From assembly GCF_048403405.1 (NCBI RefSeq), contig NZ_CP183129.1: DNA of 64,000 nt. The stretch is one strand, 5' to 3'. This document shows, piece after piece, positions 24,866 to 27,800 of the stretch; within the stretch, counting starts at the first letter, position 1; each line of letters starts with the position of its first letter. This DNA is from Escherichia coli (GTDB taxonomy: Bacteria > Pseudomonadota > Gammaproteobacteria > Enterobacterales > Enterobacteriaceae). The position numbers are program-made.

Positions 24866-27800
24866 TCGCTGCCAGCCAGGCAACGCTCAATCCACTGCGC
24901 CGTGGTTTCCGGATCTTTTGCTTGTGGCAGTAACTTGCTACCAGCAGGGTCCTGTTTTTCATACAGCACCCGCATCCCTTCATGGTCGATCAAATTGATT
25001 TGCGGGCAGCGCTGCGGATTAGCATACACTTCACCTTCAGTACCATGCATTAGTAGCGCCCGCCCGCCGATATCGCTAAAGAACTTCGCGACGCGTCCAA
25101 TGTATTCCGGATGCGAAACGCTGGAAAGACGCAGTGCCTCACCTTCGGCAAATGGCGTCGCCAGTTTCGCCAGGGTATGTGCACTGTTACGCACGCCCAT
25201 CCGCCAGCGCATCGCCAGTTGTTTTTCCAGCGGCGGGCAAAACGCGCCGACAGGCATAAACACCGGTTGATGTTCGTCGAGCTTCGCCTGCGCCTGCCCG
25301 CCGTGCAACGTTGGCGTAATACCCATCAGTTCGAAAATGGTTTCTGTCAGCACGCGGGTTGGATCTTCGCTAACCCCGTGAACCACCACAGGAAAACCGA
25401 GTTTATGCAGGAGAATCGCCAACAACGGCGTCAGGTTGGCCTGTTTACGCGCGCCGTTGTAACTGGGGATGACAATCGGCATCGGCTTGTCTGCAGGCGG
25501 CGTCAGCTTGATGGTGTGATTTTGCATGGCTTCGTAAAAGCCGAGCATCTCTGCTTCCCCTTCCCCTTTGATACGCAGCGCAATCAATACGCCGCCCAAC
25601 TCAAGGTCAGGGACTTCACCATTGAGCATATGGGCATACAGACCGCGCGCAGTATCCCGGTCTAAATCGCGCGCGTGGTTTTTCCCGCGCCCGATCTCTT
25701 TAATGATTTTGCGATAGTCCATTTACGACTCCTTACCTGACTCACATCATTAACGCCGCCGACGGCGTGGGGATTTCGTTTTTTCTTTCTTTTTAACTAT
25801 ACCTTCAGGGGCTTCCGGTTGCTCTATCGGAAATACCGGTAATGCATCCAGTAGCCGCTTGCCGTAGTTTTTGGTGAGCAAGCGTTTATCGTAAATCACC
25901 ACTTCGCCCCAGCAACCGTGGCTTCGAATCAGTCGCCCAACCTGCTGAATCAGGTTAAACGAGGCGCTCGGCAGGCTTTGCACCTCAAACGGATAGCGGT
26001 TGAGGCTTTTCAGCCATTCCCCTTCGGTGATCACCACCGGGCTGTCGATGGGCGGAAAAGCGATTTTGTGGATATGCACCTGGCTGAGCAGATCACCTTT
26101 CAAATCAAGCCCTTCGGCAAAGGACTGTAAGCCCACCAGCACACTACGCTCACCGTTGGCAACGCGTTTGCGGTGCAGTTCAACTAAGCGATAACGCGGC
26201 TGATCGCCCTGCACCAGCAACATCAGGCGTAAATCCGTCACATAGTCGAGAAAGCGCTGCATCGCCCGTCCGCTGGCAAACAGTACCAACATACCGAGAT
26301 GTTTTTTGCTCTCCACCTGCTCACGGAAAAAGGCCGCCATTTCAGCAATGTGCTGCTCTTCGTTGTCGATGGAAGGCTCAAAGCGCATCCGGGGAATAAC
26401 AATTTTGCCCTGTTCGCAGTGGTTAAAGGGCGAATCCAGCGCCACAAAGCGGTCGCCCGCTTTCTCTTTCAGACCACTCATCTCCTGCAAACGCGAAAAA
26501 CTGTTCAGCGAACGTAAGGTCGCGGAAGTGACAATAATGTGCGGAATACTGCGCCACAGCAGCCTTTCCAGCTGATCGCTGACACGAATACCCACACAGT
26601 GAAACCAGATATGCAGCTGCCCTTCGCGCTCTTCCCGCGTCGCCCATTTGGTCACCGGCGCACCGGAAGATTGCGCCAGAGACGCCAGCCGCCAGAGTTT
26701 GCTTTGCGCCTCGAACATCCCCAGCGCGCGGTTCATCTGTAAAATAAACCGATGCAGACGCACAATATCGTGGCTGCCGGTTTTCTCACTTAAATCGTTA
26801 AGAAATAACTCCGCCAGGCCACGCAGCATCTCGGTGAGTTTTGCCAGCCGCTGGCAGATCTCCAGCACTTCATCTGGCAGTTCGCCCATCGCAAAACGGT
26901 GCTCTGCCTCCTGCCCGGCAGGCATGTAGAGATTGAGAATGTTGTTTAACGAGGCGATAAGCTCATACAACTCTTCACAATGCGCATTCAAACGTTCAGG
27001 GATCGCCAGCGGCGGGATGGTCTTCGGGCGAAACTGCTCCATGCAGGTAGCGACCAGTTTCGTGAACAAGTCCAGCTGTAGCCGATACCACGGCGCGGTG
27101 ATTTCGGCACTCATCTCCAGCGCATCCCGCGCCACATCTGGCAGGTGATGACCTTCGTCCAGCACCAGCAGCAAATTTTTCGGGTCAGGCAATACGGCTT
27201 CGCTTTCCATCGCCGCCATCACCAGCGCATGGTTTGCCACCACCACTTCCGCTTCCTGAATCTCCCGACGAGCGACAAAAAACGGGCATTCGCGATAGTA
27301 ATAACAGTTGCGGTTGAGGCAGCTGGCTTTGTCGGTACTCAACCGACGCCAGAGATCATCATCAATGGCGATATCCGTATGATCGCGCAGACCATCCCAT
27401 TTATAAGTGTCGAGATCGCCCTTCAACTTTGCACAACGCTTTTGCTCTTCCTGATTGTTCGGCGTCAGCTCGTCGTCAAGAAACGCCAGCAGATCCTGTT
27501 GCGTGGGCTCGCCGTCAGATTTCGCGGGCAAACGTAGCGCCCACGACCAAAAGCGGCAGTGAATTTAAGATCGGGAATGATCTTTTTCAGCAGTGGCAAA
27601 TCTTTGCTGTAGATCTGATCCTGCAATGCCACGTTGGCGGTGCTCACCACCAGCGTTTTTTGCTCTTCGCGGGCAATGGCGATGCCGGGAATCAAATAGG
27701 AGAGCGTTTTCCCAACGCCAGTGGGGGCTTCAATCGCCAGATGCCGCCCTTCTTCTCCGGCCAGCGTTTTGGCGACGTCCGCAATCATCTGCCGCTGCGG

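Follow-up and report, generated by a model that had tools for sequence, protein, structure and literature searches.

In this study, we analyzed a stretch of 64,000 nucleotides (nt) from Escherichia coli (assembly GCF_048403405.1, contig NZ_CP183129.1), referred to below as the window, focusing on its dinG gene, which lies on the minus strand and carries a frameshift. E. coli DinG is a LexA-regulated XPD/Rad3-family SF2 5'-3' helicase with a 4Fe-4S cluster (6FWR/6FWS; NF008729), and it acts beside Rep and UvrD in replication through highly transcribed regions and R-loops (PMC11981726; PMC5679670). The window shares with intact E. coli dinG the same locus and the same LexA box, and its sequence is identical but for 13 nt to the intact orthologue of its closest relatives. 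It differs in that the frame is broken after residue 126. Walker A and Cys120 remain on one fragment, and the other cysteine ligands, the remainder of helicase domain 1 and the whole of helicase domain 2 are predicted to stay untranslated.

The whole pseudogene extends over 25750..27887 (minus strand), from an ATG at 27887 to a stop at 25750, and measures 2138 nt compared with 2151 nt for the intact gene. A mechanical list of open reading frames (ORFs) gave two minus-strand ORFs in different frames, 27465..27986 (173 amino acids, aa) and 25750..27531 (593 aa), which overlap over 67 nt at 27465..27531 (minus strand). This is the interval flagged in the preliminary description of the window, and the split into two overlapping ORFs reported there agrees with our list. 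When read from the real ATG at 27887, the upstream ORF was found to encode 140 aa, not 173 aa. This N-terminal fragment (27465..27887, minus strand) comprises DinG residues 1-126, with the in-frame end ...YVCPRNLTA (GRGRYVCPRNLTA), followed by 14 out-of-frame residues (SPRNRICWRFLTTS) and a TGA at 27465-27467. The C-terminal part in the original frame (25750..27508, minus strand) corresponds to DinG residues from about 131/132 to 716 and contains Cys194, Cys199 and Cys205 together with DEAD_2 and Helicase_C_2, the Pfam domains of the intact protein; neither a start codon nor a ribosome-binding site of its own belongs to this part. The 593-aa ORF opens out of frame with MPAKSDG, rejoins the DinG frame at EPTQQDLLAFL and ends at the normal stop at 25750.

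The LexA operator of dinG was located at 27902..27921 (minus strand), ending 15 nt upstream of the ATG. Its sequence, TATTGGCTGTTTATACAGTA, has one exact match in the window, where none is expected by chance, and is the same as the K-12 dinG LexA box tabulated previously (PMC3009722), so that the SOS box is intact as had been described. The region upstream of dinG is identical throughout to that of relatives with an intact gene.

The 13-nt deletion and its standing

The deletion was called by deterministic sequence comparison, with no statistical signal involved. In both pairwise and multiple alignments, exactly 13 nt are missing from the window relative to TUM14771, 4621, MS 69-1, TUM1226 and GN02461, which bears out the earlier estimate made from gene length (2138 against 2151 nt). 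The junction lies at 27509..27511 (minus strand), and the absent bases make up codons 127-130 together with base one of codon 131. A comparison with closely related genomes had been proposed as a check, and four of these relatives (4621, MS 69-1, TUM1226 and GN02461) were found to carry an intact dinG of 2151 nt and 716 aa. A total of six genomes are at least 99% identical to the window across 9 kb around dinG. Over the full 64 kb, strain 4621 differs from the window by one single-nucleotide polymorphism (SNP), one single-base indel and the 13-nt gap, and the SNPs numbered zero for TUM1226 in a comparison of 49 kb, two for MS 69-1 and three for GN02461.

On the sense strand the intact alleles read CTGACGGC-GCTTGCCAGCACT-GAGCCC, or in the equivalent placement ...GGCG-CTTGCCAGCACTG-AGCCC, and the window reads CTGACGGC-GAGCCC. 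The deleted segment is thus either GCTTGCCAGCACT or CTTGCCAGCACTG, its placement being ambiguous by 1 nt, and the microhomology consists of one G shared between the deleted segment and the flank. The deletion had been ascribed to a short gcgag repeat, but GCGAG is the new junction itself; the intact allele, ACGGC-GCTTGCCAGCACT-GAGCCC, shares a single G only and has no such direct repeat, and this cause was ruled out. The junction lies in unique, mixed-composition sequence that is neither homopolymeric nor of low complexity and so does not resemble the usual sites of sequencing errors.

A 401-nt query at the site found matches covering 80% or more of it in 5,420 of the 5,426 complete E. coli genomes in RefSeq. 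All 5,420 keep the extra 13 nt and none has the deletion. The listed matches span 412-414 nt and none reaches 99% identity, the best, at 96.9% identity, differing by 13 gap columns in 414 and in nothing else. An 80-nt query over the junction gave zero ungapped matches in RefSeq E. coli genomes, and a 24-nt junction pattern had no match in 100,044 GTDB species-representative genomes or in JGI metagenome contigs. Ten possible truncated products were also looked up as exact matches among 15 billion proteins, and the zero found was judged uninformative because pseudogenes annotated by the Prokaryotic Genome Annotation Pipeline (PGAP) leave no entry among the proteins; for the public genomes ECONIH1, ECONIH6, KE41 and Ecol_AZ161, too, the truncated peptides were missing from this look-up. 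An intact 101-nt query could not count indels at this site by identity bands, since the lineages differ here by many SNPs, with gap-free identity going down to about 92%. Judged from these alignments, the window's dinG allele is the derived state and its lesion a deletion private to this sequence, because near-identical relatives are intact and the allele is absent from the 5,420 other genomes.

The deletion is probably a genuine, strain-private loss-of-function mutation that would be present in the cells of the sequenced isolate. We take it as genuine because loss of dinG is tolerated and natural E. coli repeatedly lose the gene by deletions of similar size. E. coli dinG mutants show only mild sensitivity to ultraviolet (UV) light and H2O2 (PMC11981726), and real small deletions are common in dinG; a sibling of the window, isolate 68, carries an independent 13-nt deletion 220 nt upstream.

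Several observations weigh against this reading and favor a second one, in which the 13 nt were lost through an assembly, polishing or consensus artefact and the organism has an intact 716-codon dinG. The first is the absence of the allele from every other collection searched (RefSeq genomes, species representatives and JGI metagenomes). The second is that two indels but not a single SNP in the 64 kb are private to the window when it is set against its five closest relatives; such an indel-to-SNP ratio is suggestive of an imperfectly polished assembly, for which it would be expected, with the counts being tiny. The third is the nature of the other private indel, a frameshift at 17899 in rlmF (17843-18727, minus strand), where 1 nt is lost in an A6/T6 run, a classic context of consensus errors. 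This lesion lies near the 3' end of rlmF and replaces the last 31 residues by 17 others, giving 294 aa rather than 308 aa. All five close relatives have A6 at this position, and among RefSeq genomes A5 occurs only in B1.H1.18 and B1.H1.1; in the annotation of B1.H1.18, the one examined, rlmF and the adjacent ybiO are both flagged 'frameshifted'. The rlmF frameshift may be an assembly error, which bears on the trust that can be placed in the dinG deletion. On the other side, a clean loss of 13 nt in unique sequence of mixed composition is an unusual error type for any platform, deletions of the same size in dinG are real in other strains and backed by independent read assemblies, and the remainder of the window is error-free relative to the relatives. 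On balance, an artefact is considered a serious contender, though clearly the less probable of the two explanations.

Predicted consequences for the DinG protein

The frame shifts after Ala126 and a stop follows 14 codons later. The Walker A residue Lys60 (GVGKT) and Cys120 (YVCPRN) lie upstream of the break, and Cys194, Cys199 and Cys205 lie downstream. Lys60 is essential for ATPase activity and the four cysteines are the ligands of the cluster (PMC5679670); the window's dinG does not hold these residues on one chain. In the crystal structure of DinG, helicase domain 1 harbors the Fe-S domain as an insertion, to which R117 and R211 are assigned (PMC6300356). It follows from this insertion and this assignment that the break lies within the Fe-S domain and splits helicase domain 1 in two. 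The preliminary description had placed the break ahead of the Fe-S and helicase domains, which does not hold, as Lys60 and Cys120 are on its upstream side.

The same picture was obtained with the NCBIfam equivalog NF008729, for which the curated cutoff is 598 bits. The N-terminal fragment matched positions 2-129 with 212 bits, under the cutoff, the C-terminal fragment matched positions 133-702 with 822 bits, and an intact relative matched positions 2-702 with 1053 bits. No single polypeptide of the window matches the model end to end, and the intact protein matches the DinG of PDB entries 6FWR/6FWS over residues 1-716. The lesion fits an ordinary frameshift pseudogene, with an indel of a length not divisible by three, a premature stop and an intact orthologue in relatives.

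One alternative is that dinG retains its function: ribosomes might undergo programmed -1 frameshifting within the 67-nt overlap, or the two halves might be translated separately and then reassemble. At any point of the overlap, a shift by -1 would bring translation back into the DinG frame at the cost of no more than four or five lost or altered residues, and the DNA of this stretch is fairly polymorphic among E. coli lineages. Against this, no slippery heptamer of the form XXXYYYZ occurs in 27465-27560, and the two-frame arrangement is conserved in none of the 5,420 genomes. The downstream ORF begins only at a mechanical TTG (27531) that has no Shine-Dalgarno sequence; the starts that follow in this frame (27426, 27342, 27246 and beyond) also lack one, and their products would be devoid of the P-loop and Cys120. 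A split product would further part Cys120 from the other three ligands, and helicase activity suffers severely when the Fe-S domain is disrupted (PMC11981726). Continued function is thus very improbable, and programmed frameshifting and translational coupling were ruled out on the grounds that there is no slippery heptamer and that the restarts lack both a ribosome-binding site and the P-loop. Our reading agrees with the earlier claim that no functional DinG would be made: with the catalytic residues separated by the frameshift and no recoding signal present, the sequence as written is predicted to encode no functional DinG.

The following course of events is proposed. A 13-bp deletion without repeat support (1 nt of microhomology) would have taken out codons 127-130 and one further base. 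Translation from the normal LexA-controlled start would then leave the frame after Ala126 and end 14 codons on. The resulting 140-aa product would keep the P-loop and, of the four Fe-S ligands, only Cys120; missing from it would be what remains of helicase domain 1, along with the arch domain and helicase domain 2. The 1.76 kb downstream would be left untranslated, and the cell would be expected to behave effectively as a dinG null. In this predicted lack of active DinG the window resembles laboratory dinG nulls of K-12, and it differs from them in that its allele is a natural or record-level frameshift, which would express a 140-aa peptide under SOS control.

Taken alone, the finding bears on annotation and on the prediction of phenotype in this isolate. 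The gene should be called a pseudogene, and the strain would be without DinG, which with Rep and UvrD makes up the three accessory helicases that aid replication through transcribed DNA and R-loops. The window's dinG can be regarded as a dispensable SOS gene turned into a pseudogene by an ordinary, private frameshift, or possibly as the result of an assembly error.

Small deletions elsewhere in dinG

Deletions were also found at a second place in dinG, about 220 nt upstream of the window's own, at codons ~50-54 directly before the P-loop motif APTGVGKT. This very sharp hot spot corresponds to window positions 27730-27742, where the window is intact. Isolate 68 (Guadalajara, Spain; NZ_OX030728) has a 2138-nt dinG flagged 'frameshifted' with a 13-nt deletion of ATCTGGCGATTGA at this place and retains the 13 nt that the window lacks. 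There is no SNP between isolate 68 and the window across the 49 kb compared, and neither indel of the window is present in isolate 68.

A junction query identified deletions at the hot spot in 18 of 5,417 genomes. All 18 deletions, of 13, 14 or 15 nt, remove ATCTGGCGATTGA with a microhomology of at most 1 nt, and in alignment they fall into five boundary variants, each on the flanking SNPs of its own lineage, with edges that vary by only 1 nt on either side. The 13-nt variant (ATCTGGCGATTGA) was found in isolate 68, in 2020S05-013 with six derivatives, and in 21AR0807. Two variants lack 14 nt, one (ATCTGGCGATTGAA) being carried by ECONIH6, WP5-S17-ESBL-10 and strain 167, by KE41 and by Ecol_AZ161, and the other (CATCTGGCGATTGA) by ECONIH1. 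The remaining two lack 15 nt and are in frame, namely CATCTGGCGATTGAA in TUM18780 and TUM18530 and ATCTGGCGATTGAAG in DETEC-C31. By these boundaries and flanks, at least nine independent deletion events are counted at the hot spot. The carriers come from Spain, Taiwan, New Zealand, the USA, Japan and China, and their sequences are the work of different groups.

The 60-aa peptide of the sequence type 131 (ST131)-type 13-nt allele was found on 27 contigs, with 30 blocks in the contig index, and these blocks include Logan assemblies made directly from the reads of unrelated runs. The hot-spot alleles are taken to be real because the peptide recurs in such assemblies, and Logan read assemblies also contain the truncated peptide of isolate 68. 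Among the deletions, each of the three reading frames is found, which argues that the function of DinG is dispensable in nature. Two synthetic 13-nt control junctions placed elsewhere in dinG revealed no natural deletion in 5,421 and 3,706 genomes, respectively, which marks the spot as special.

Two explanations for the deletions were examined and set aside. Gene conversion from a second genomic copy was ruled out, as each genome has one junction match, lying among the flanking SNPs of its own lineage. Deletion mediated by a hairpin was unsupported, as both sites on both strands are predicted to fold no more stably than shuffled sequence (z 0.03 to 1.39).

At the window's own site, only one other genome was found to have a lesion. 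The ST131 strain MB1341 (NZ_CP174453) has an independent 5-nt deletion, GCACT, with the same right-hand boundary as that of the window (|GAGCCCACG); the lesion lies at L006:1480-1610, which corresponds to about 27505-27515 of the window, and its dinG is annotated 'frameshifted'. The 139-aa truncated peptide of MB1341 is also present in a Logan read assembly. Annotated dinG pseudogenes are known from isolate 68, 2020S05-013, 21AR0807, ECONIH1, ECONIH6, WP5-S17-ESBL-10, KE41, strain 167, Ecol_AZ161 and MB1341. Like the window's allele, the dinG alleles flagged 'frameshifted' by PGAP have deletions (5 to 14 nt) in the 5' third of the gene, with a microhomology of no more than 1 nt, and truncated N-terminal peptides. 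Unlike the window's, all of them except that of MB1341 sit at codons ~50-54, and MB1341 loses only GCACT.

These data raise the question of whether the window's deletion is a random neutral hit or the product of a recurrent process acting on dinG, such as sequence-directed deletion, positive selection favoring the loss of dinG in lineages that are clinical or multidrug-resistant, or both. Several results point to a recurrent process: in 18 of 5,417 genomes, at least nine independent events in five boundary variants gather in a single place 220 nt upstream, the control junctions gave none, the sibling genome isolate 68 has its own 13-nt deletion, and MB1341 shares the right-hand boundary of the window. 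The two 13-nt deletions also have similar flanks, CGGC(N)-[12-13 nt]-AGCCC, with 1 nt of microhomology each. By analogy, inactivation of chromosomal helicases compensates for plasmid cost in Pseudomonas (PMC11687550), and the likeness lies in the loss of a non-essential chromosomal helicase in plasmid-rich clinical lineages; it is an analogy only, as the literature searched gave no link between E. coli DinG and plasmid cost. Against a recurrent process, the window's own site is lesioned in just one other genome, and there by a different lesion. The likeness of the flanks was noticed post hoc and in GC-rich DNA, the predicted folding of both sites is no better than that of shuffled sequence, and the RefSeq set is biased toward clinical, drug-resistant isolates. 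No literature was found on natural dinG loss in E. coli or on a dinG deletion hot spot, in a search whose results were swamped by authors named Ding. We consider it rather unlikely that the window's deletion arose from such a process.

Only tentatively, then, can dinG be viewed as a recurrent target of ~13-15 bp deletions, with codon 127 in the window as a further and weaker site at which this process acts. The process might consist of a site-directed break whose ends are joined imprecisely, or of some other sequence-directed mechanism, and selection for loss of DinG in clinical, plasmid-rich lineages could add to the deletions. Beyond the window, natural E. coli appear to lose dinG time and again through deletions of near-equal size at one precise spot. 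If site-specific mutation or selection against DinG is indeed at work, this would be a new piece of E. coli genome biology and a caution against treating dinG as a core and intact gene.

Some further features of the hot-spot alleles were recorded. The in-frame 15-nt alleles (TUM18780 and DETEC-C31; dinG coding sequence 2400-4535) lose HLAIE directly before APTGVGKT and are annotated by RefSeq as a normal 711-aa 'ATP-dependent DNA helicase DinG'. These proteins are probably inactive too and pass unflagged in annotation. In the ST131-type 13-nt allele, the 60-aa ORF (L021:1501-1683) ends in TTGA, and the TTG opens a 652-aa ORF (1680-3183) in the original frame. This coupling-like overlap of 4 nt would yield a predicted 652-aa product, which is DinG without the P-loop.

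Genes and island beside dinG

The gene order at the locus is rhlE, an espX2-like island, dinG and ybiB, which matches that of the relatives. ybiB (24760..25722, minus strand; coordinates transferred from the annotation of strain 4621) lies directly 3' of dinG and is intact, with zero sequence differences from the relatives in the alignment. The premature stop in dinG could exert a polar effect on ybiB. Two ORFs are located between rhlE and dinG, one of 670 aa (28171-30183, minus strand) and one of 561 aa (30488-32173, plus strand), in place of which K-12-like strains carry ybiA. In relatives, the former is annotated as the type III secretion effector EspX2 and the latter as a hypothetical protein. 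A 9-kb query over this island was matched to at least 80% by only 541 of 5,423 genomes, and ST131-type genomes have a truncated NADAR/ybiA remnant at the same position.

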